Assembly: GCA_937992175.1 (NCBI GenBank)
Contig: CALKLF010000080.1
Location: forward strand, 2,936-66,935
Reading direction: 5' to 3'
DNA from: an uncultured Fimbriimonadales bacterium
Lineage (GTDB): Bacteria; Armatimonadota; Fimbriimonadia; Fimbriimonadales; GBS-DC
DNA length: 64,000 bases
The position numbers and the translations under genes were made by a program. Shown in pieces: positions 25,100 through 62,763 of this stretch; within the stretch, counting starts at the first letter, position 1, and each line of letters opens with the position of its first letter. Under the pieces are notes generated by a model. It ran no database searches, was not told where the DNA came from, and was given only the letters and a program-made list of their open reading frames with translations.

Positions 25100-26571
25100 T
25101 CAGCACCCCTGCCCGAAGTTGAACAATACAATCAGCAGGTCGGCATTGTCCACATTTCGATCGCGGTTCAGGTCTTCCAGCCTGCCGATACCCGTTGCGC
25201 CGAAGTTGAACAGCACGATGAGCAGGTCGGCATCATCCACGCAGCCGTCGCCGTTCACATCGCCTGCGCGGCGCGTGTCCTGAATGCGGAAGTTGCCGGG
25301 GTTAGGACTGTAGAACACATGCCCGACAGGCTCTACGATAAGGCGGGCGCGCGTGCTGACCACATTCGGCACAACGACGGTTTCGACGCCGTCGTTGGGC
25401 GTGTTCGCCTTCAGCACAATCAGATTGCCCGATTCGTAGTCCAGCCCGCCGTCCAGCGAGAGCAGGATATTGACCGTAGCGGCGATGCTACCTCCGCCCA
25501 CCTGCCAGATGACGGCTTGCGTGGAGCCGACATTCCATGTCGTGTCGGATGCGGGTTGCGTGACGCGAAATGGCGCGCCGTTAACCGTGACCCGGGTTGT
25601 GGCGATGGCTACGCCACCCCCACCTGCGCGATTATCACGCACGGTGCAGCGGAAGGTCATCGTGCGGTTCGTGGCAGGTAGCGTCTCCCACCGATCGGTC
25701 GTGTTGTTCATCACGGTTTGCAGGCGTGGGAAGAAGCGCGTGGGACTGAGGACAGGCAGGCGCGAGCGGAACAGGGGGGTGCTATCGTATTGCTCCCAGC
25801 AGTAGGTGAGGGTGTCGCCGTCGGGGTCGCTGCCGGTGGCGGTCAGGCGGAACGGTGTGCTTTGCGGAACGCGCACGAAACTCGGCGCGGTTACGGTGGG
25901 GACTGTATTATTGATTGTGGTACGCGCGGCGCAGGCGTTGCCCACGCTGTCTGTGATGAAATTGATCGTCTCTGTGATGTTGTGCGTGTGGAAGTAGGGG
26001 TCAGAGTTTGGCTGCACATCATCGCTTGCGCCGCAGACGCCCGCATACGCCATAATCGTGCTGCCGCTGCCTGGTTCATAAGGGAACGGCGCGCTGCTGC
26101 CTGCGCATGAGCGATAAGTATGGTTCGCCGCGAACTGGTGTCCCATTTCATGCGCCACATAGTCGATGTCAAACGCGTCGCCGCGAGGCACTAACAAGCC
26201 CGAGACGCCGTGCGCCTTCTGCCCTGCACGGCACACCACGCCCAGTCCTGCGTAGCCGCCAAAGTTGCCTCGCGTGAAAACGTGTCCAAAATCGTAGTTC
26301 GCAGAGCCTAACACAGAATCCAGTGTCGCTTGGTTCTCGCTGCCACGGTATCTTCGTGCGGCGCGTTCCAGAGGATTCGGCGCATACGCGCTTCATCCAG
26401 CCGAAAGGTTCGATAGGCGCGCAGTTCCGAAACGAGGTCGTAGCCCAGACCTGCATCAGCTGTCGGTGCGGGAACCGGCTGCCAGAGCGCGTCTGGCGAT
26501 TGTTGAGCGGACACCGTCGTTATGAAACAAACCAGCCCCAGTGTAAGGCTGAGCATCTTTATCCTGTTCAT
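25100..26571 (-). pseudogene. Reprolysin-like (M12B) zinc metallopeptidase with dockerin-like C-terminus, disrupted by internal deletion and frameshift
   Basis: Signal peptide/prodomain ORF (26571-26308) out of frame with catalytic part (HEMGHQFAANH, EPGSGSTIMAYAG); junction near 26340. Confidence 0.8.
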
Positions 26572-26616
26572 GGCACTCACCATAGGAATTATACATCGTG
26601 CGCGGTTCAGTCATCG

Positions 26617-41326: not shown

Positions 41327-41600
41327 TCAACTGCGTAAGCGCATCAGATACCGCGATGCCGAGTCGGTGGACGGGTCGGCGTCCGCTTCGGGGTCAATGC
41401 CGCGCAGCATCATGCCTTGCCCGCGCGAGAGGTGGGTCGCGACGGTCGGATGGTCAGTCGGGTCGCGCATCTGCACGAGCAATGTCGTGCGCGCCTCATG
41501 GGTGGTGTTCACACCCGAGCCGTGAATCGTGAGGTAGTTGAACACCACCACATCGCCCGCTTTAGCAGGCACAGGCGTCGCGCGTTCCGTCGGCGGAGAT
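41327..41600 (-). pseudogene. Phytanoyl-CoA dioxygenase family C-terminal remnant
   Basis: AKAGDVVVFNYLTIHGSGVN..R motif; N-terminal HxD half missing. Confidence 0.7.
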
Positions 41601-41705
41601 GGGGAGCCAGCAGCTCGTCGCGCTTGGATTCCCTCCCCTATCAGCCTTACACAGGGGGCGTTCAACTACGAATCTCTCTGATCGCTCAGGTACAATACTC
41701 CCTCG

Positions 41706-46369: not shown

Positions 46370-46893
46370 TTAATCTCCGCCTCCAGCTAACTGCTGAGAC
46401 GCCCGACTCCAGACTCGGGCGCGCCACCACTTCCTCCAGTATGCTGTGGGCGATGAGTTCAGCTCCGACGCGCACGCGTGTGCCACCCTCAATGTCCTCA
46501 TTGTGCAGCCCGCGCAGAATCAGGGGACTGGCGCTGAGGATTTGCACCATCAGCGCGCGCAAGTGCAGCTCATTGTCGGGCAGGCACAGCAGGCGCAGGC
46601 GGTAGACGCGCTCCAGCTCGTTCGCGCCTTCGCCTGTCTGGTCGATTCGGCGGGCAATCGGGCGCAGCAGGGATGTTGCTAATCAGCACCAGCAGCGCGG
46701 CGATAGTCGCAGCGATGAGGTCGCCTGAACCTGCCAGCACGCCGACCGACGCCGCGCCCCAAAGCGTGGCGGCGGTGTTCAGCCCACGCACGTCTGCGCC
46801 CTCACGGATAATCACGCCCGCGCCGAGGAAGCCAATCCCCGACGCCACCTGCGCTGCGATGCGTGTGGGGTTGTTCTCGCCCTCCACCAGCAT
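46370..46893 (-). pseudogene. MgtC/SapB family pseudogene (5' truncated, frameshifted)
   Basis: RIAAQVASGIGFLGAGVI..RGLNTAATLW in one frame; ACT-like C-terminus ...GVSAVSW in another. Confidence 0.8.
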
Positions 46894-46962
46894 GCGACAG
46901 CATTCGTAGCGTCGGCGTCTGCGCCGACGACACACGGCACTTGAAAGCCTGATTGGGATAAG

Positions 46963-48327: not shown

Positions 48328-49560
48328 TTACCCCTGTCCGACGCGCTCGTTCCCGCTCGTCCGAATCGCGCCTTGCGATGTTTGAGGCAGTCCCCACGCC
48401 GCCAGTGCGAGCGCAATCACCAGGTCGTCATGCGCCCCTCCTGCGCCCTGCAGGCGCGCGCCGCGGTGGGTAGGCGTCGCTTCGAAGTGATAGAGTTCGC
48501 TCAATAGCGCAGGTTCCGGCAACAGCTGCAGCCTGCCCTGCTCCAGCATCAGGGCTAAATGGTCGATCAGGTTCTGCTTGACCGCGGGTGTGAACACGAC
48601 GCCTTCCGCCTGCGGAATGCCTGCTTCCTGCAACGCCTCCAGCAGCGGGTCGCCCACGCCTGTGCGGTCGCACAGTACGCGCACGGGTTGATACAAGCGC
48701 AGCAGTCCTGCGACGGCTTCGAGTTGCTCCCGCCACGATAGCCCTTGCCAGCGGCGGATGAGCAGCATTTTCGCCCCTTCGCGTGCGCCGCGCAGAATCG
48801 TCAGCGCCGTGTAGTCCTGCCGCCGCGCCCAGTCCACCCCTGCCACCATCAGCCCCTCCTCAGGCAGGTTCTGCTGCAGCGCGCGATCGACCCACTCTGT
48901 GCGGAACACCTGTCCCGCGTCGTCCAGAAACATCGCGCCGTACTCCACCTGAAACTGTCGTGCGCTCATCAGGCTCGCCTGCATCTGCAGCAGGGTGGGT
49001 GAGAGGAGCGGGTTGTGCCATGAGGGGCAGCGCAAGCTCCAGATGTGGACGCCGTCCTCCTGACCCTGTTGGTAGAGGCGATAGAAGTAGTTCTTGCCGC
49101 GCGGGGTGGAGACCAGCGCGAGTTTACCCCCCGTGTCGGCGAGCATTGGCATCAACACTTCGTTAATCACCGATTCGGGCACATAAGCGGCTTCGTCGAC
49201 GATAACCATGTGTGCTTTGCGTCCGCGCAGGAGCATGCCGCCGCGCGCCGCCGAGCGCGCCCAGAGCTTCGAGTCACCCAGTGCGAGCGTGGGAGCGGGC
49301 GTGCGTCGAATTGTCGGGCGCACGCCAGCGCGATGCAGGAACTCAACTGCCCGTTCGAACCCCAGCATCGCCTGCTCCTGTGACGGGGCGACCAGCAACA
49401 CTTGGCGGGGCGCGTCACGGCGCAATGTGCGGGTAATCTCCGCTGCGATGACCTCGGTCTTGCCCCACCGCCTGCCGCACGCCAGCACGCGCACACGCGC
49501 CTCAGAAGCGAGAAAGGCAAGTTGACCCGGATGGGGATGCCAGCCAGAAATCACAACCAT
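48328..49560 (-). CDS. Phage terminase large subunit (Terminase_6-like), intact
   Basis: HPGQ, Walker A GRRWGKT, Walker B VIVDEAA, STPRG, RNase H-like GVDWA..DYT, DRTGVG, HDDLVIALALA; GGGGAG RBS. Confidence 0.92.
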   Translation of the reverse strand: MVVISGWHPHPGQLAFLASEARVRVLACGRRWGKTEVIAAEITRTLRRDAPRQVLLVAPSQEQAMLGFERAVEFLHRAGVRPTIRRTPAPTLALGDSKLWARSAARGGMLLRGRKAHMVIVDEAAYVPESVINEVLMPMLADTGGKLALVSTPRGKNYFYRLYQQGQEDGVHIWSLRCPSWHNPLLSPTLLQMQASLMSARQFQVEYGAMFLDDAGQVFRTEWVDRALQQNLPEEGLMVAGVDWARRQDYTALTILRGAREGAKMLLIRRWQGLSWREQLEAVAGLLRLYQPVRVLCDRTGVGDPLLEALQEAGIPQAEGVVFTPAVKQNLIDHLALMLEQGRLQLLPEPALLSELYHFEATPTHRGARLQGAGGAHDDLVIALALAAWGLPQTSQGAIRTSGNERVGQG

Positions 49561-49794
49561 TACTCCCCCGCCGATTCTGTCGACGCGGTGGGAGACAGGC
49601 AACCCAGATCGACGCCGACGCAAGATGCGCCCTGAATGATAAGCCCTTCCTGCAAAGAATGATCCCGAAAGAGATTCTTCGCTTCGCTCGGAATTTAGGG
49701 CGTCCTTCTTGTCTCAACACTTGCCTCAGAGCCACCCCGCCCCGACCCTCTGGCAAGGGTACGCATGCTTTGCGAGGTACAATACGCGAGGCGT

Positions 49795-50865
49795 ATGAGG
49801 AGACGCGCATTCTGGATCGCTGTGAGTTTCGTGATTATGGCAGCCGTTGGGGTGCGCTTACTCTATCGGTCGCCTGAGGACGCGCAAGAGCGTATGCATG
49901 CGGAGGAGGCGCGTGCGCGGGAGGCGATTGATGCGCTGGCGAGTCTGCCCCCTGAGCAGCAGTTGCCCCTGCTCAGGAAGTATCTATCGCTGGAGTCGCC
50001 TGTTGCGGTGCGCGTGGCGGCAGTGGACAGCGTTGCTCGCGTCGACGCGCCGGAAGCTCGCGCCATGCTGTTCGAGGCGTTGCACGACTACGCCTCGCAG
50101 GTGCGTGTGCGCGTGGCGGAGATGTCGAGCCGTTTACCGCGCGAGGCGGCATCGGAGCTGCTCATCAGCTGCCTGATCGATCACGATACGGTTGTGCGCC
50201 AGACGGCGATTATGCAGCTGCAGTCGCTGCGCGAGCGGCGCGCCGTGGCGCCTCTTATCGAGCTGTTGCGCGACGATCCGAACGAACAGACGCAGCAGAT
50301 GGCGATGAGCGCGCTGCGGGCGATTACGGGGCGGCCCTACTACGCCCGCTACACCGACCCGCCCGAACAGCGTGCGAAGGCGCGTCAGCAGTGGCTGGAA
50401 TGGTGGCGCGACGCCCAGCGCGAATACCCCGCCGTTCAGCCCCAGCTGTATTCCCCGAAACACTCGATGCCCGCGCCCGACATCACCCTGCGCACGCTCG
50501 ACGGCGAGACCATCGCGCTGCGCTCCTCGCCCAAGCCGCTGCTGATTAACTTCTGGGGCACATGGTGCGGCGAGTGCCAATCCGAGCTGCCCGATTTCAT
50601 CCGTTTCCACAACGAGTACGGTGACCGTGTGATGGTGGTTGGGGTGGCATTCGACGAGCCAGCGGGGGAGCAGGGACAGCGCAAGTTCTGCGCCGAGCAG
50701 GGCGTTCGCTATCCGCAGGCACTGGGTACGGAGCGTATTGCCGACGCCTTCCATCTGCACGGCGTGCCCCAGACCCTGCTCATCGATACGCAAGGCAGGA
50801 TTCGCTTCTGGTGGACAGGCGCACGTGACTTCGGCACGCTCCAGCGGGCGCTGCAAATGTTGTAA
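49795..50865 (+). CDS. Membrane-anchored HEAT-repeat plus TlpA-like thioredoxin fusion
   Basis: N-terminal TM, HEAT repeats, INFWGTWCGEC, GVPQTLLID. Confidence 0.88.
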   Translation: MRRRAFWIAVSFVIMAAVGVRLLYRSPEDAQERMHAEEARAREAIDALASLPPEQQLPLLRKYLSLESPVAVRVAAVDSVARVDAPEARAMLFEALHDYASQVRVRVAEMSSRLPREAASELLISCLIDHDTVVRQTAIMQLQSLRERRAVAPLIELLRDDPNEQTQQMAMSALRAITGRPYYARYTDPPEQRAKARQQWLEWWRDAQREYPAVQPQLYSPKHSMPAPDITLRTLDGETIALRSSPKPLLINFWGTWCGECQSELPDFIRFHNEYGDRVMVVGVAFDEPAGEQGQRKFCAEQGVRYPQALGTERIADAFHLHGVPQTLLIDTQGRIRFWWTGARDFGTLQRALQML

Positions 50866-51059
50866 ACTCAAGTTCGTTTGCGCGGAAACAGCCCCGTCGT
50901 CCCGAGCGAGGCGAGAGATCTTGACCGCTTCCGACCTCCCTCGTGGACGGGAGAGGCGGGGCGGGGTCTGCGCTTGCGTTCCCTCCCCGCCGACGATGTT
51001 GCACCACTCGATTTGCCCGTCGGTGTCAGCTCAAGGAGTGAGGGCAACCTGCAACCCCG

Positions 51060-51989
51060 TTATCCTGTCCCCATCAACGCCGTCTGCCACAGTCCGTAGC
51101 CAACGCCGTAGCGGGCGCGCGCGCCGTACAGCACCTTGTCGCGCATAAATACCTGCTCGCTGTCGGGCTTGTCCAGCGCGGCGAACTCCAGCGGCACATC
51201 CCGGCGTTCCTGCAGCACCACCGCCCGCATCGCTCGCGAAGTGTCCAGCAGGAACCACTTGGTCTCATGTGCGCCCGTGATGTAGTGCGACACAATCAGG
51301 CGCAGCTTGCCCTGCAGCACATTCCGATAGGGCGTGAAGTTGTTCGCCGTGTTCGCCTGCACCACAATCGGCGACTCCAGCAGTTCCATCGCCAGCCACT
51401 GCAGCTTGGGACCCACCAGCAGCGTGTCGGGCATGATTCCCATCGGGCGTCCGCGGTCGTCTTTGAACTGCATCATCTGCGCCATCGCCGCCTGCAGGCT
51501 GTTCGTGGAGAGCGCGCCGTTGTAGATATTGCTCTGCAGTCCGCTGTCGCCCTCTTTGTGGTCGGTATCGAACAGGAACTGTCCGTCGTAGCAGCGCCCG
51601 TCAATTGAGCCTCGAATCAACGCCTCGATGACGAGCTGCTCCTTGTGGCGCACGGCTTCCCGCGCCAGATCGCGCACGCGCATCCGAATCATATCGTACT
51701 GCTCGTCCTCCAGAGCGCGTCGCTCGACGGCGATGGACGCTTCCCACACCTGGTCGCTGATAGTGTATTCGTATACGCCCAGCCCTGCAGGTTGGCGTTC
51801 GTCCACCAACTCGCGCATCACGGGCACACTGCCCAGCCAGCCATATTTTTGCACGGGCAGGTTCGTGCGCACAATCGTGGCAATCTGGGGCGTGATACTC
51901 GCTTCATTGAGCTGGCGATAGGCGCGAAAGAACTCCGTGCGCAGCCCCGCCTCCACCAGCGAGAGCAAATCGCTTCGTACTAACGGCAT
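51060..51989 (-). CDS. Mu-like major capsid protein (gpT family, HK97 fold)
   Basis: YGWLGSVPVMRE, CYDGQFLFDTDH, DDRGRPMGIMPDTLLVGP, WFLLDT, YGARARYGVGYGLWQ; GAGGAGG RBS. Confidence 0.92.
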   Translation of the reverse strand: MPLVRSDLLSLVEAGLRTEFFRAYRQLNEASITPQIATIVRTNLPVQKYGWLGSVPVMRELVDERQPAGLGVYEYTISDQVWEASIAVERRALEDEQYDMIRMRVRDLAREAVRHKEQLVIEALIRGSIDGRCYDGQFLFDTDHKEGDSGLQSNIYNGALSTNSLQAAMAQMMQFKDDRGRPMGIMPDTLLVGPKLQWLAMELLESPIVVQANTANNFTPYRNVLQGKLRLIVSHYITGAHETKWFLLDTSRAMRAVVLQERRDVPLEFAALDKPDSEQVFMRDKVLYGARARYGVGYGLWQTALMGTG

Positions 51990-52003
51990 CTCGGCTCACC
52001 TCC

Positions 52004-52417
52004 TCAGACCGTGTGGTTGTCAATCCGAATCCGCACGCGGTTGCCGTCCAGCAGCTCGACCACCGTGCCGACGAGGATGTTGTTTGTGCTGATCTTGGCG
52101 ACCTCGTTGTCGCTGGCGGCGCGCACGGTTGCGCCGATGTCCGCTTGCGTGTAGCTCCCGACGCGGTTGTAGACGAAGCTGCCGCGCTTGATTACGCGAC
52201 ACCGTTTATCGCCGTTGCCGCCGCCCGTGTTATCCACGCTTTCGAACGCCACGCCGACGAAGCGCAGCCCTGAGGCATCGGCGGCGGGAATCAGATGACC
52301 CGTGCTGTCCACGCACACCAGGGCGCCTTTCCAGATTTTCGCGTTCGCCTTCACGGGATAGGCGATAATCAGCCCTTCGCGTTCGTGGGCTTCGTAGGGT
52401 TGCGTCAGTGCAGGCAT
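52004..52417 (-). CDS. Head decoration protein (DUF2190-like, Mu-like head operon)
   Basis: PVKANAKIWKGALV..GVAFESVDNTGG..DIG..SDNEV; position between protease and capsid. Confidence 0.75.
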   Translation of the reverse strand: MPALTQPYEAHEREGLIIAYPVKANAKIWKGALVCVDSTGHLIPAADASGLRFVGVAFESVDNTGGGNGDKRCRVIKRGSFVYNRVGSYTQADIGATVRAASDNEVAKISTNNILVGTVVELLDGNRVRIRIDNHTV

Positions 52418-52419
52418 CG

Positions 52420-53172
52420 TTATCGCGCCTCCTTCTGCAAAATTTCAGCGGGGTTCAGGTCGGGGAACGCCTGGTGCAGGAACTCTAAAGCGTCCGCGCT
52501 GAAACCCAGCGTCTCGGTTTCGGGCGTTGGGGCAAGCTCGCCCAGCAGAGGTTGTGGAGGCAGGCTGTTCACAAACTGGCGGAACAGCTCGGCGACCGAA
52601 GTAGTCGTGCCGCTGAACTGCACGGGCGCGTCGCCCTGCATCAGGATGGCTTCGGCAAGCGGCGCGAGCGCAGGGGGTAGCTGCCCGCGCAGGCTCCACT
52701 GCTGAATCTGCTCACGCGCCTCGCGTCGGCGCAACTCGGCTTCCAGCTCGCGTATGCGGGACTCCAGAATCTCAACACTCTCCACTCGAATCACCTCCAT
52801 ATGGTGGGGCGCAGTGTGGAACAGTTGCGCGCTGGGGACGCGGGGGCTTGCGGTGATGGAGACTTCCAGCAGGCGACGCAGGTCGCGGCTCAGCCCGACG
52901 CTCAGCCCGCGCAGGCGCAAACGGCGCAGCAGCGCGTCCGCCTCAGGGAACAGTGCGAGCCTGCCATAGAGCGCGTCGCCCCGCCGCCACAGGCGCACCA
53001 GCCATCCCAGCAGCAACGGCGACGGACGATGCTCCACCAGAATCGGCGCGGGCGCGCGGAACGAGCTAACCAGCCCCTCCAAATGCGCCGCCGTAATCGC
53101 TACTCCCTTGTCGGGATAGATCCCCGCCTCGATGAGTTTCGCGTCGCGGTAACTCCACTCTGCGCTCAGCAT
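52420..53172 (-). CDS. Mu gpI-like prohead protease with C-terminal scaffold
   Basis: PILVEH..LGWLVRL..GDALYG..GLSVG..EVSITASP protease pattern, then coiled coil; first gene of the head operon. Confidence 0.75.
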   Translation of the reverse strand: MLSAEWSYRDAKLIEAGIYPDKGVAITAAHLEGLVSSFRAPAPILVEHRPSPLLLGWLVRLWRRGDALYGRLALFPEADALLRRLRLRGLSVGLSRDLRRLLEVSITASPRVPSAQLFHTAPHHMEVIRVESVEILESRIRELEAELRRREAREQIQQWSLRGQLPPALAPLAEAILMQGDAPVQFSGTTTSVAELFRQFVNSLPPQPLLGELAPTPETETLGFSADALEFLHQAFPDLNPAEILQKEAR

Positions 53173-53226
53173 TCCATGCGCATGCGGATAGAAGCAATCA
53201 GTTCGGGCAACCGTTCTAGATATCGG

Positions 53227-54966
53227 CTATCGCACGATCTCCTGCACCAGCTGCTCGTCTACAAAGATGCGTATCTTCACCGAACCGCCCTGTGCTTCCA
53301 CAGGGACTGTGTAAATTTGCCCGCCCGGGCGCAGCTCGTCCAGCACGACGCGTTTACCGAGAGCGTCTTCCACCTCGATGCGAATCCGTCGGTCGGGCTG
53401 GTCAGTCAGGTCGATTTTCACCTCGAAAGTGCGTTTGGGGGCGTCGGAATGGGCGGGCTGCGGTTCGGGTTCAGGCGTTGTGGGGGGCAGGGCGTCGTAG
53501 CCAGAGCCGATGCTCACGATAAGCTTAATCGGACGCGAGCGGTCGATGCGCGCTCCTGCAGGCGGAACCGTGCCAATCACATGCCCTAAAGGGACAGTCG
53601 CGTGCTTGCGCTCTTCCACGCTGTCCATCACGGCAAGCCCCATGCCTTCCAGTTCGCGGCGGGCGCGCGATTCGGGCATGTTGTTCACATTCGGCACTTC
53701 CACAAAGCGCGAGCCTTTGCTCACCCACAGGAACACCTTGCTGCCTTTGCGCACCACACGCCCTTCTGGGGGGCTAACCGAGTAGACCACGCCGGGCGGG
53801 TACTGCTCGCTGTAGCCCTCCATGCGCACTTCGGGTTCCAAATCCGCCGCGCGCAGGATGCGGTTCGCTTCGTCCAGCTTTTTGCCCACTACCTGCGGCA
53901 CAGGGCGGTCTTCAGGAGCGAAGCGCATCGCCATCCACGCCGCGACGCCAATCACCAGGCCCAGCGCGACCAGCGCGCCCGTGAGCCGAATCATCGTGCG
54001 CAGCCATTTCGGGATGTCGTCCTCTTCTTCCTCGACAGGCGGGGGCGGCGGGGCGGGTTTGCGGGCGAAGATGTCGCCTGAGGCGGGTTTCGCGCCTGCA
54101 GAGTCGGGCAGGTCAATCGGTGACCAGCCGAGCGACTTGCCGAACCGCAGCGCGTCGCGCACCGCTTTCAAATCGTTCAGCAATTGCAGGGTAGTGGCGT
54201 AGCGTTGGGCGGGGTCTTTCTGCAGGCACTTGGTCACGATGCCTTCCACCGTGCGAGGCGCGGCGGGGTTGCGTTGGCGCAGCGACGGAATCGGGTCGTT
54301 CAGGTGCGCCTCGGCGGTCAGCACGGGCGTCTCCCCCGCGAAAGGCGCGGCGGCGGTAATCATCTCAAACAGCATCACGCCGCAGGCATAGATGTCGCTG
54401 GCGACGCTGGGGGCGGCGCCGCGAAACAGTTCGGGCGCAGTGTAGGCGGCGGCGCGGGCTTCGTGCGCGGCGGCGAGTCCCGGCTCGGCGCGGTACACGC
54501 CTCGCATCCCCATCCCGGTCAGCCACACATGCCACTCCGAGCCGACCAGCACATTCGCCGGTCGCAGATCCCCATGCGTCAGCCCTGCGCTGTGAATCGC
54601 CTGCAGCCCCTCCACAATCCCAATCATAATCTCAATCGCAATCGGCACAGTGAAGGGCGCGGTGCGGCGGATGCGCGTCTGCAAATCCAGCCCACGCACG
54701 AACTCCTCCACGAAAAACGGGGGCTGAGCGGCTAAGTCCGACTCGTACAGTTCCAGCAGGTGCGGGCTGCGCACGCGCTGGCGCGAGTCGAGCACCATCT
54801 GCAAGGTGTCCAGCAGCGACTGATTGTTCGCGTAGGGGGCGCGCACGGCTTTCAGCGTCACCACGCGCGAGCGGGTCAAATCGCGGGCGCGATACACATG
54901 AAACAGCAGCCCCTCCGAAAGCTGCTCCAGCAGTTCGTAACGCGCCGCCAGCACATTCCCTGTCAT
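53227..54966 (-). CDS. PknB-like Ser/Thr kinase-fold protein with TM helix and PASTA domains (degenerate active site)
   Basis: RYELLEQL, HGDLRPAN, APE, SDIYACG; TM; VPQVVG and VPNVNN PASTA repeats. Confidence 0.9.
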   Translation of the reverse strand: MTGNVLAARYELLEQLSEGLLFHVYRARDLTRSRVVTLKAVRAPYANNQSLLDTLQMVLDSRQRVRSPHLLELYESDLAAQPPFFVEEFVRGLDLQTRIRRTAPFTVPIAIEIMIGIVEGLQAIHSAGLTHGDLRPANVLVGSEWHVWLTGMGMRGVYRAEPGLAAAHEARAAAYTAPELFRGAAPSVASDIYACGVMLFEMITAAAPFAGETPVLTAEAHLNDPIPSLRQRNPAAPRTVEGIVTKCLQKDPAQRYATTLQLLNDLKAVRDALRFGKSLGWSPIDLPDSAGAKPASGDIFARKPAPPPPPVEEEEDDIPKWLRTMIRLTGALVALGLVIGVAAWMAMRFAPEDRPVPQVVGKKLDEANRILRAADLEPEVRMEGYSEQYPPGVVYSVSPPEGRVVRKGSKVFLWVSKGSRFVEVPNVNNMPESRARRELEGMGLAVMDSVEERKHATVPLGHVIGTVPPAGARIDRSRPIKLIVSIGSGYDALPPTTPEPEPQPAHSDAPKRTFEVKIDLTDQPDRRIRIEVEDALGKRVVLDELRPGGQIYTVPVEAQGGSVKIRIFVDEQLVQEIVR

Positions 54967-55112: not shown

Positions 55113-55610
55113 ATGAATATACTAACGGGGTACCAGACCTAGGCGCGCCGAGGGCTGCGCCGTTGCGCTGCAGTATCGTTTTTTGCGCTGGGCGTGCTGC
55201 TTGGCGCACTGACCAGTCTCCATGCGCAGACGCTCACATGGCTGGGTACGCTGGGGGGCAACCGCAGCATCGCTTACGATGTGTCGGATAACGGCGATGT
55301 CGTTGTCGGCGAAGCGTTCACGATGTATGAAGGTCCACGCGCCTTCCGCTGGACTCCGAACACAGGCATGCAACAACTGCCCAGCCCGACAGGCAATCCT
55401 CAGTACGGACCGCATCGCGCACTCGATGTGTCCGCCGATGGCACGGTCGTCGTCGGGCAGGCGTTCTTCCGCGCATGCCGATGGGAAAACGATTCGGTCA
55501 CAGTCATGACGCCCATCATGCCCTTCCACCTCAACGCCGCAAACAATGACAACATCGTGGACGACGCCGACCTCCTGATTGTGCTGTTCAACTTCGGCAG
55601 CGGCTGTTGA
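55113..55610 (+). pseudogene. HAF-repeat extracellular protein remnant with dockerin-like tail
   Basis: ATG 55113 with in-frame TAG at 55140; LTWLGTLGG, AFRWT..GMQ, SADGTVVVG; only about 2 repeats joined to DDADLLIVLFNFGSGC. Confidence 0.7.
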
Positions 55611-59311: not shown

Positions 59312-59454
59312 TCGCCGTAGGCACTCCCTGAAACCCCGACGAAAATTATACCACTTAAGTTCCAGGTGTTGCAACTCGTTGGCGTCCCGCCGACGAGTTC
59401 ACAGCATCTGCTCCGCCAGTTGGTAGCTGCTTCCAGTGAAAAATGATACCGAAT

Positions 59455-62223: not shown

Positions 62224-62763
62224 TCAGCTTGTAAAACACCCCGCGCCGAGTCCCGATTCGCTCCAGCCTGTTCTGCTCGACGAGCATTCTAAAGCGTCCA
62301 TGCCAAGTTGCGCGATTGTATTCGCTGTGAAATCGACCAGCCCCATCGAATGAAGCTTTTGGATGCGCAACGAACCTGTAAGTGGCTTGCATTCACGCCC
62401 CACTCTAATTTTTGCACTGCCATCTGTTGTCGTATGGATGCCTATGCCTTGCGGGATGTGTACCAGTAATAGAGTCAAACCATACGCTTCAACATTAATT
62501 TTAGCATCTGTGCTTTCATAAATACGAGAGCGCATTTCTGATATGTTGTAGGAGCCACATCCCGTACTGTCGCGAATCCCCAGCACGAGAGTACCCCCCA
62601 TGTGGTTAGCAAAGCAAACAGCATACTCCGCAAGCATCTTTTAAAGACGATGCGCGTTGCGTATCCACTCCTTGAATTCATGCGTCTCGCTTTCCAGCAA
62701 CTGGGCTTTGGTCGAACCCAGTTGCCCAATTAGATTTAGAATCTGTTCCTTGCTGTGGCGCAT
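62224..62763 (-). pseudogene. AlbA_2/Schlafen-domain protein remnant
   Basis: ESETHEFKE..(TAA at 62643-62641)..AVCFANHMGGTLVLGIRD; AT-rich; C-terminal domains missing. Confidence 0.8.

Follow-up and report, generated by a model that had tools for sequence, protein, structure and literature searches.

A dispersed set of phage-derived head, DNA-packaging and neck genes is present in an uncultured Fimbriimonadales bacterium of the phylum Armatimonadota. Part of it lies in the stretch of 64,000 nucleotides analysed here (contig CALKLF010000080.1, positions 2,936 to 66,935; hereafter the window), namely a large terminase gene and a nearby three-gene operon for a Mu-like head. The set almost certainly constitutes a domesticated, functional head system and not a decaying prophage. 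Judged from the sequences, the head, motor and neck genes are intact, inherited with the host and under purifying selection. On balance, we favour the reading that they encode a host-owned machine of phage origin, which would form tail-less, DNA-filled heads and act in a role like that of a gene transfer agent (GTA). The system is probably undescribed; no paper on it was found in the literature searched, which included few subscription titles and no supplements. The accessible main text of the Fimbriimonas genome paper reports one prophage and mentions no capsid system (PMC4072686), and the satellites described in the accessible part of another paper are unrelated (PMC12822802).

The source genome, G000, comprises 2.83 Mb in 133 contigs and is 93.8% complete; its family is designated f1 and other families are numbered likewise. 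A preliminary description of the window had proposed four reading frames for terminase, capsid, decoration protein and protease, and all four are open where it placed them (Table 1). Its identification of the terminase is upheld by matches to Terminase_6N/6C and phrog_2 and by catalytic motifs that are invariant in 16 orthologues. These comprise CGRRWGKT and DEAA, which we take to be the Walker A and Walker B motifs, and D243, D298, D378 and D379, presumably the nuclease acids. The closest solved structure is PDB 4zni, which we believe to be from Thermus phage P74-26. Translation of the terminase likely starts at ATG 49560, following GGGGGAG, with TTG 49623 being disfavoured. The capsid has solved relatives (8rkc, 8rkx, 9jod) and residues H48 and S91 of the protease are invariant in 27/27 sequences, while a sequence search returned no solved relative of the decoration protein. 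The strong ribosome-binding sites attributed to the head operon are clear before the decoration and capsid genes, and also before the terminase, but no clear one precedes the protease.

The preliminary description had suggested a search of the rest of the genome for portal and neck genes, and this revealed a lone portal gene and a neck operon on two other contigs. The latter contains three small genes, one encoding a helical protein with a hydrophobic start, and genes for proteins of 132 and 104 residues, the adaptor and the stopper. Neither adaptor nor stopper matched any Pfam family, but both were modelled confidently, with predicted local distance difference test (pLDDT) scores of 90 and 91. 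The adaptor model aligns with HK97 gp6 (Z 7.4, root mean square deviation (rmsd) 3.9, 90 residues aligned) and with Bxb1 (Z 7.6); these scores are middling for a helical fold, although most top rows are neck proteins and the gene order agrees. The stopper model resembles the Pam3 neck (Z 10.0, rmsd 2.4, 79 residues aligned), the R4C stopper (Z 9.1) and RcGTA (Z 7.9). The modelled folds of both proteins thus match phage neck proteins. A Mu gp36 profile had no match in G000, which is uninformative because the positive control was silent as well, and an atlas search added only the gpT family. The large terminase has a single match in G000. No integrase or replication genes are linked to the system loci of this genome, their neighbours being host genes.

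The genes are a regular possession of the family. Among 28 f1 genomes, G000 excluded, the terminase occurs in 27 (once as a short fragment), the portal and the adaptor in 27 each and the capsid in 25, nearly always in single copy. A mobile control, a small terminase borne by satellites, is found in only 8/28. The multi-locus organisation described for G000 holds with four units there and in the closed genome G307, where they lie far apart, at 1.23, 1.41, 2.27 and 2.56 Mb. In a sample of 301 genomes from the phylum, matches were obtained for the capsid in 95, the terminase in 135, the portal in 116 and the adaptor in 79, counts that at E 0.001 take in unrelated prophage genes, with an adaptor profile built from these same families. 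Of the 79 adaptor-positive genomes, 77 have matches to capsid, terminase and portal as well. Families in which the system is close to fixation are f3, f7, f16, f20, f23 and f27; it is partial in f2, f14 and f30 and was undetected in many of the other families searched. In G312 the matches to capsid, adaptor and portal are split. The closest capsid relatives come from records whose titles give Fimbriimonadales or Armatimonadota, and of 80 loci kept, 79 have bacterial titles and one that of an archaeal bin. Annotated phage capsids are at most 37% identical to this capsid, and viral contigs yielded one distant capsid only, at 28%.

Ratios of nonsynonymous to synonymous substitution (dN/dS), calculated pairwise against G000 by NG86 from pairs that are not independent, are far below 1. 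They amount to 0.068 for the capsid (24 pairs), 0.096 for the portal (24/26), 0.12 for the decoration protein (19/20), 0.18 for the protease (17) and the adaptor (26/27), 0.19 for the terminase (24) and 0.41 for the stopper (25). Neighbouring host genes, with similar dS, have a ratio of 0.136 (223/232 pairs), a value biased low by filtering these pairs to at least 55% identity. Relative to the genome, codon usage places the capsid at the 94th and the decoration protein at the 96th percentile, and the terminase and portal at the 44th. Purifying selection, for which the preliminary description had asked for a dN/dS check, is therefore borne out.

Vertical inheritance, also claimed beforehand, agrees with the family-wide presence and with trees that largely follow RpoB. 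Quick trees were compared with an RpoB reference tree of 60 genomes using only splits with support of at least 90. Identical splits were found for 24/27 in the terminase (39 taxa, 3 conflicts), 16/16 in the portal (33 taxa) and 24/31 in the capsid (55 taxa), compared to at most 2 in a shuffled-label control. These counts leave out extra and prophage copies, G022 and G053; G214, G260 and G326 fall outside the capsid set. The capsids of G022 and G053 form a separate clade with different terminase, portal and protease types and belong to a second head module (L046 and L215, respectively), whose capsid is nonetheless related. In G022, small membrane genes and a gene for a GH25-like lysozyme come after this module, and no tail gene was seen.

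These results bear on an alternative in which the window holds the remnant of a decaying Mu-like prophage or a misassembly. The Mu-like capsid, portal and protease, the broken genes nearby and the loss of the system in some genomes would suit such an origin. However, dN/dS far below 1, fixation, congruence with RpoB and the distance to phage capsids contradict decay. Furthermore, assembly contigs from three runs of one study span 49216-51294, where they join terminase, HEAT gene and capsid, and 52163-53727, where they join protease and kinase, with no more than one difference. The window is thus probably assembled correctly, even though these runs may include its source sample; no RNA run was among the listed runs that carry the sequence. 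The marks of a Mu-like prophage, namely a transposase, contiguous structural genes with a tail and strain-specific presence, were not found, in contrast to the tailed prophage of G307. This explanation is thus highly improbable. None of the testable outcomes listed beforehand as telling against the proposal appeared; a patchy, strain-specific distribution, for one, does not describe genes that are each present in 25-27 of 28 f1 genomes.

The dispersed units have an upstream motif in common. In f1, all four are preceded by GT[T/A]G[C/A]C-N15-Y[G/A][T/A]C[C/A], located 35-75 bases before the start. As the motif was read from these same sequences, it was tested by holding out each unit, a pass being a score above the 95th percentile of 2591 upstream regions of G000. 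In total 81/82 passed, with 15/15 and 23/24 for the two units outside the window (for the others see Table 1), although related genomes are not independent. In other families the motif is rare, being found in 5/218 gene-upstream regions, all before a protease or small terminase, against a null of 1.3%. Likeness between genomes ends just upstream of the motif, implying that promoter and gene move together. From its spacing, the motif may be a promoter recognised by an alternative sigma factor. In a promoter scan of the genome no further unit stood out (31 candidates, versus 20 when the genome was reversed as a control), nor was a self-regulated sigma factor found. In other families, GAAC-N4-GTTC, which we take to be a LexA box, lies upstream of a module gene in 12/23 loci (f7, f20, f23, f27, f30 and f44; 1% expected per random window), and it is absent from the loci of f1, f3 and f16 (0/18).

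The picture drawn in the preliminary description would imply conserved synteny with purB or the kinase, and this is lacking in close capsid and family terminase loci. The terminase, kinase, purB and HEAT genes are missing from all 23 close capsid loci, several of which are short, and in none of 26 f1 terminase loci do purB and HEAT genes occur at a distance of up to 1.5 kb. The closeness of terminase and head operon is accordingly real in the window but not conserved in relatives. Dispersal is not special to the system, as the sequences compared indicate that the genus scrambles all gene order: congener loci (L083-L120, L164-L189; 14-21 kb, 73-93% nucleotide identity) map gene by gene onto many G000 contigs. 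Given this genus-wide shuffling, the proximity in the window appears incidental. Scattered pathway genes have also been reported for Chthonomonas calidirosea, in the accessible part of the source (PMC4959169).

In f7, f20, f23, f27 and f44, the order is small terminase, large terminase, portal, protease, decoration protein, capsid, a variable gene, adaptor, stopper and small membrane-type genes, and a small terminase of the module type is found only in these families. Such contiguous modules are often interrupted by unrelated genes. A peptidoglycan hydrolase (amidase, M23 or M15) follows the neck genes in 12/16 contiguous loci. The variable slot between capsid and adaptor (L033, L045, L050, L198, L205) encodes 120 to 1005 residues, with a LamG domain in L045, and these sequences may represent head spikes; no homologue of the slot gene was found in G000.

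No tail gene was recognised after the neck in the 16 contiguous loci, of whose downstream genes a subset was scanned and the rest judged by size. Eight tail profiles returned nothing in G000 or in the closed genome G144, and five returned nothing in the closed genomes G147 and G153; matches in G307, G230 and G138 are at a distance from the module. When the tail-region genes of three prophages from these hosts were compared with the 2656 genes predicted in G000, none had a homologue at E 1e-4. A second tape-measure candidate in G307 was rejected as a glycine zipper. An ordinary tailed GTA, whose tail genes are too divergent for detection or lie in unassembled parts, would explain why an adaptor and stopper, which normally join a tail, are retained, and profiles can overlook tails, with five genomes searched per profile. 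Yet the contiguous loci, the three closed genomes, the prophage comparison and the promoter scan, which yielded no further unit, all argue against it and make it quite unlikely. The proposal made in the preliminary description holds as to vertical inheritance, several loci and selection, but, as no tail genes were found anywhere, a particle would on present evidence not be RcGTA-like and tailed. The alternative raised there, a compartment with the HK97 fold, is unlikely as a pure protein shell, given the retention of terminase, portal, adaptor and stopper. An encapsulin-type compartment is an HK97 shell with enzyme cargo that has neither portal nor terminase, whereas here both of these are conserved and found together with a conserved adaptor and stopper.

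Mobile relatives of the system do exist. In f30, the tail-less module has extra copies, which reside either on small contigs or on islands that also carry a repressor, a primase-helicase and a serine integrase. These copies are sister to the chromosomal f30 copies; the islands measure about 35 kb or more. A mobile element therefore uses such a head. The sites are G130:C1:3929600-3965500 (L345, L073, L074), G112:C1:216000-250600 (L347, L069, L070), G291:C2 and C3, and G130:C2. The islands are rich in restriction-type genes, and no clear attachment repeat was found for that of G130. A different small terminase is present five times in G000 itself. Three of these copies were read (L358, L359, L357, at G000:C84:13149-19730, C8:19370-23583 and C93:775-2790), all beside an integrase and a tRNA gene, with a primase in two and a capsid or large terminase in none; further copies are at C45:21955 and C56:5865. 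Candidates for a module-type small terminase in G000 (best E 0.06) were rejected, as they proved to be genes of such satellites. A profile, phrog_7344, had no match in G000, G138, G078 or G141; in G307 it had a single match, on an island with a primase. From their gene content, these islands, which resemble phage-inducible chromosomal islands (PICIs), might parasitise either phages or the head system of the host. It is very unlikely that the head system persists as a helper for, or is exploited by, satellites whose small terminase directs the host terminase to island DNA. Five small-terminase copies in a genome with one matched large terminase, on islands that as far as read lack a capsid and large terminase, would fit this, but the islands may use ordinary phages and, being patchy (8/28) while the head genes are fixed, cannot explain retention.

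Two further explanations concern the function of a head without a tail. As an anti-phage device, heads or terminase would soak up tails, mis-package phage DNA or lyse the cell early. A head and neck without a tail suits a tail decoy, the tailed phages that infect these hosts include some whose head genes are related (G177:C6, G034:C68 and the G307 prophage), and both the fast-evolving stopper and the LexA-type box of the six families named above are compatible with it. Defence genes are, however, usually patchy and horizontally moved, unlike system genes that follow RpoB, a decoy has no obvious need for a conserved nuclease-ATPase motor, and the box is missing in f1 (0/8 loci). We regard this as unlikely. 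Sealed heads that protect or release chromosomal DNA, to serve uptake, repair or biofilm, and that never use a tail would likewise agree with the lack of detected tail genes and a relaxed stopper, and the variable lectin-like or large proteins between capsid and adaptor (LamG, L045) could bind cells directly. Such surface genes were not found in G000, and we know of no tail-free mechanism by which DNA leaves HK97-type heads and enters cells, which renders this function rather unlikely.

The GTA-like role that we favour shares features with several known systems. Like RcGTA and other viriforms, as portrayed in the accessible text of two papers (PMC5026251, PMC9953437), the system consists of host-owned phage head and packaging genes at several loci, is vertical, lacks replication and integration genes and, in many lineages, is accompanied by lysis genes. 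It differs in its Mu gpT-type capsid and Mu-type portal, which have a separate origin, in its phylum, and in that no tail genes were found, whereas those agents resemble tailed phages. Capsid-forming PICIs (cf-PICIs) have the same capsid, protease, portal, terminase, adaptor and connector or stopper without a tail module, and their heads take phage tails, with adaptor and connector determining the choice of tail (bioRxiv 10.1101/2025.02.11.637232, accessible part). Yet cf-PICIs are described there as mobile islands of 10-18 kb with an integrase, replication genes and an HNH nuclease and no lysis genes, while the present genes are dispersed over the chromosome, track the host tree and are joined by lysis genes in many lineages; the island-borne copies of f30 come nearer to cf-PICIs than the chromosomal copies do. 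FpGTA of Faecalibacterium is likewise a near-ubiquitous host operon (terminases, portal, scaffold, capsid) and its particles have no visible tail, but it encodes short-tail, baseplate and fibre proteins, none of which were found here; the accessible text of that paper does not mention Armatimonadota (PMC12946183). Mu-like transposable phages (Mu, JBD30, D3112 group) have capsid, portal and protease of the same families, but are set apart by low capsid identity and by their transposase and tail; their gp36-type adaptor was unmatched, with the control silent.

By analogy with phage biology, scaffold and portal would nucleate a procapsid, the protease would mature it, the terminase would cut and pump DNA by headful, and adaptor and stopper would seal the portal. 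The cargo is proposed to be mainly chromosomal DNA, because replication and integration genes are lacking and f1 yielded no small terminase. A few cells would switch the regulon on and then lyse, and the DNA may reach recipients via tails borrowed from phages, as in cf-PICIs, or be released without a tail. A Mu-like prophage in G307 (G307:C1:661000-689000; L351-L353), with a transposase, gpT capsid, portal, tape measure and minor tail gene, is a possible tail donor in the genus. More speculatively, a large branch of Armatimonadota may have domesticated a head-only virion early, the sealed heads with self-DNA being completed outside the cell with phage tails; f1 would then have a four-unit regulon that lost its small terminase, a stopper that tracks tail donors, and satellites that parasitise the machine with a small terminase of their own. 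This extended scenario is possible but doubtful.

Several observations weigh against a tail-less GTA-like machine of the host. The adaptor occurs in only 13/31 f2 genomes and in none of many families searched, and G327, 98% complete, is without capsid, portal and adaptor. Six capsid splits conflict with RpoB, for example by grouping f1 with f16, and the capsid of one tailed phage, on a long branch, is placed next to f23. The fast evolution of the stopper (dN/dS 0.41) would be expected if tail partners change, but just as much if the protein has a relaxed role without a tail. Neither an endolysin nor a small terminase of the module type was found in G000, leaving release by lysis and the start of packaging unexplained there. 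As for tails, G000 is incomplete, tail profiles overlook divergent genes, and the G307 prophage has a tape measure that was detected by PHROGs but not by PF10145, so that the absence of a tail is likely but not proven. Lastly, tailed prophages are strain-specific and a tail donor is therefore not always present.

Table 1 Features of the head system and its surroundings. Positions refer to the window unless a contig of G000 is given.
Feature	Position	Strand	Basis
Large terminase (DNA-packaging ATPase-nuclease, Terminase_6 type), single-gene unit	48328..49560	-	Pfam/PHROGs, invariant catalytic motifs
Promoter-like motif GTTGCC-N15-CGACA, upstream of terminase	49578..49604	-	Held-out test 24/24; putative function
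HEAT-repeat/thioredoxin host gene between terminase and head operon, outside the system	49765..50865	+	Pfam
Major capsid protein, Mu gpT family (HK97 fold)	51060..51989	-	PF10124 E 1e-60
Capsid decoration/cement protein	52004..52417	-	phrog_1731 E 4e-28; Phage_cement_2 below cut-off
Head maturation protease with scaffold tail (Mu gpI/Z-like)	52420..53172	-	phrog_976 E 1e-6
Promoter-like motif GTTGCC-N15-TATCC, upstream of head operon	53186..53212	-	Best of 251 genome-wide matrix hits, held-out test 19/19; putative function
Portal, Mu-type, lone gene beside gatC/gatA	G000:C38:21157-22293	-	Present in 27/28 f1 genomes, dN/dS 0.096
Neck operon, five genes	G000:C106:2541-3953	+	Found via relatives

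The surroundings of these genes in the window were largely described correctly beforehand. Pfam confirms the HEAT-thioredoxin gene, purB and the PASTA kinase as neighbours, and no integrase, transposase, portal, tail or lysis family was detected among the 61 window proteins scanned. The composition is host-like, with a guanine-plus-cytosine fraction of 0.62-0.66 over 48-53 kb compared to 0.536 at 35 kb and 0.527 at 62 kb. The broken genes mgtC, phyH, reprolysin and AlbA indeed cover only part of their profiles; together with a 138-residue piece of a longer repeat protein they make up the partial genes at 46570-46935, 41327-41665, 25100-26583, 62224-62637 and 55194-55610. Other contigs differ by one base at window position 46670. 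Short repeated palindromes of the TCCGAGCG(A/G)AGCGA type and the GGGAGAGG type lie between genes, often at shuffling boundaries, and were seen by eye at 49640-49700, 50890-50990 and 59330-59420 of the window and at L062:2390-2480.

Known gene transfer agents occur in few lineages and are tailed-phage-like. A head-only system of great age and wide retention in another phylum would represent an independent domestication of a phage. It would raise the testable question of how a cell benefits from a sealed, DNA-filled head without a tail of its own. With the genes listed above, the common motif and the marker proteins, cultured carriers can be tested directly. If tails are borrowed, tail piracy would also be a route of gene transfer for hosts, with a range set by the local phages.

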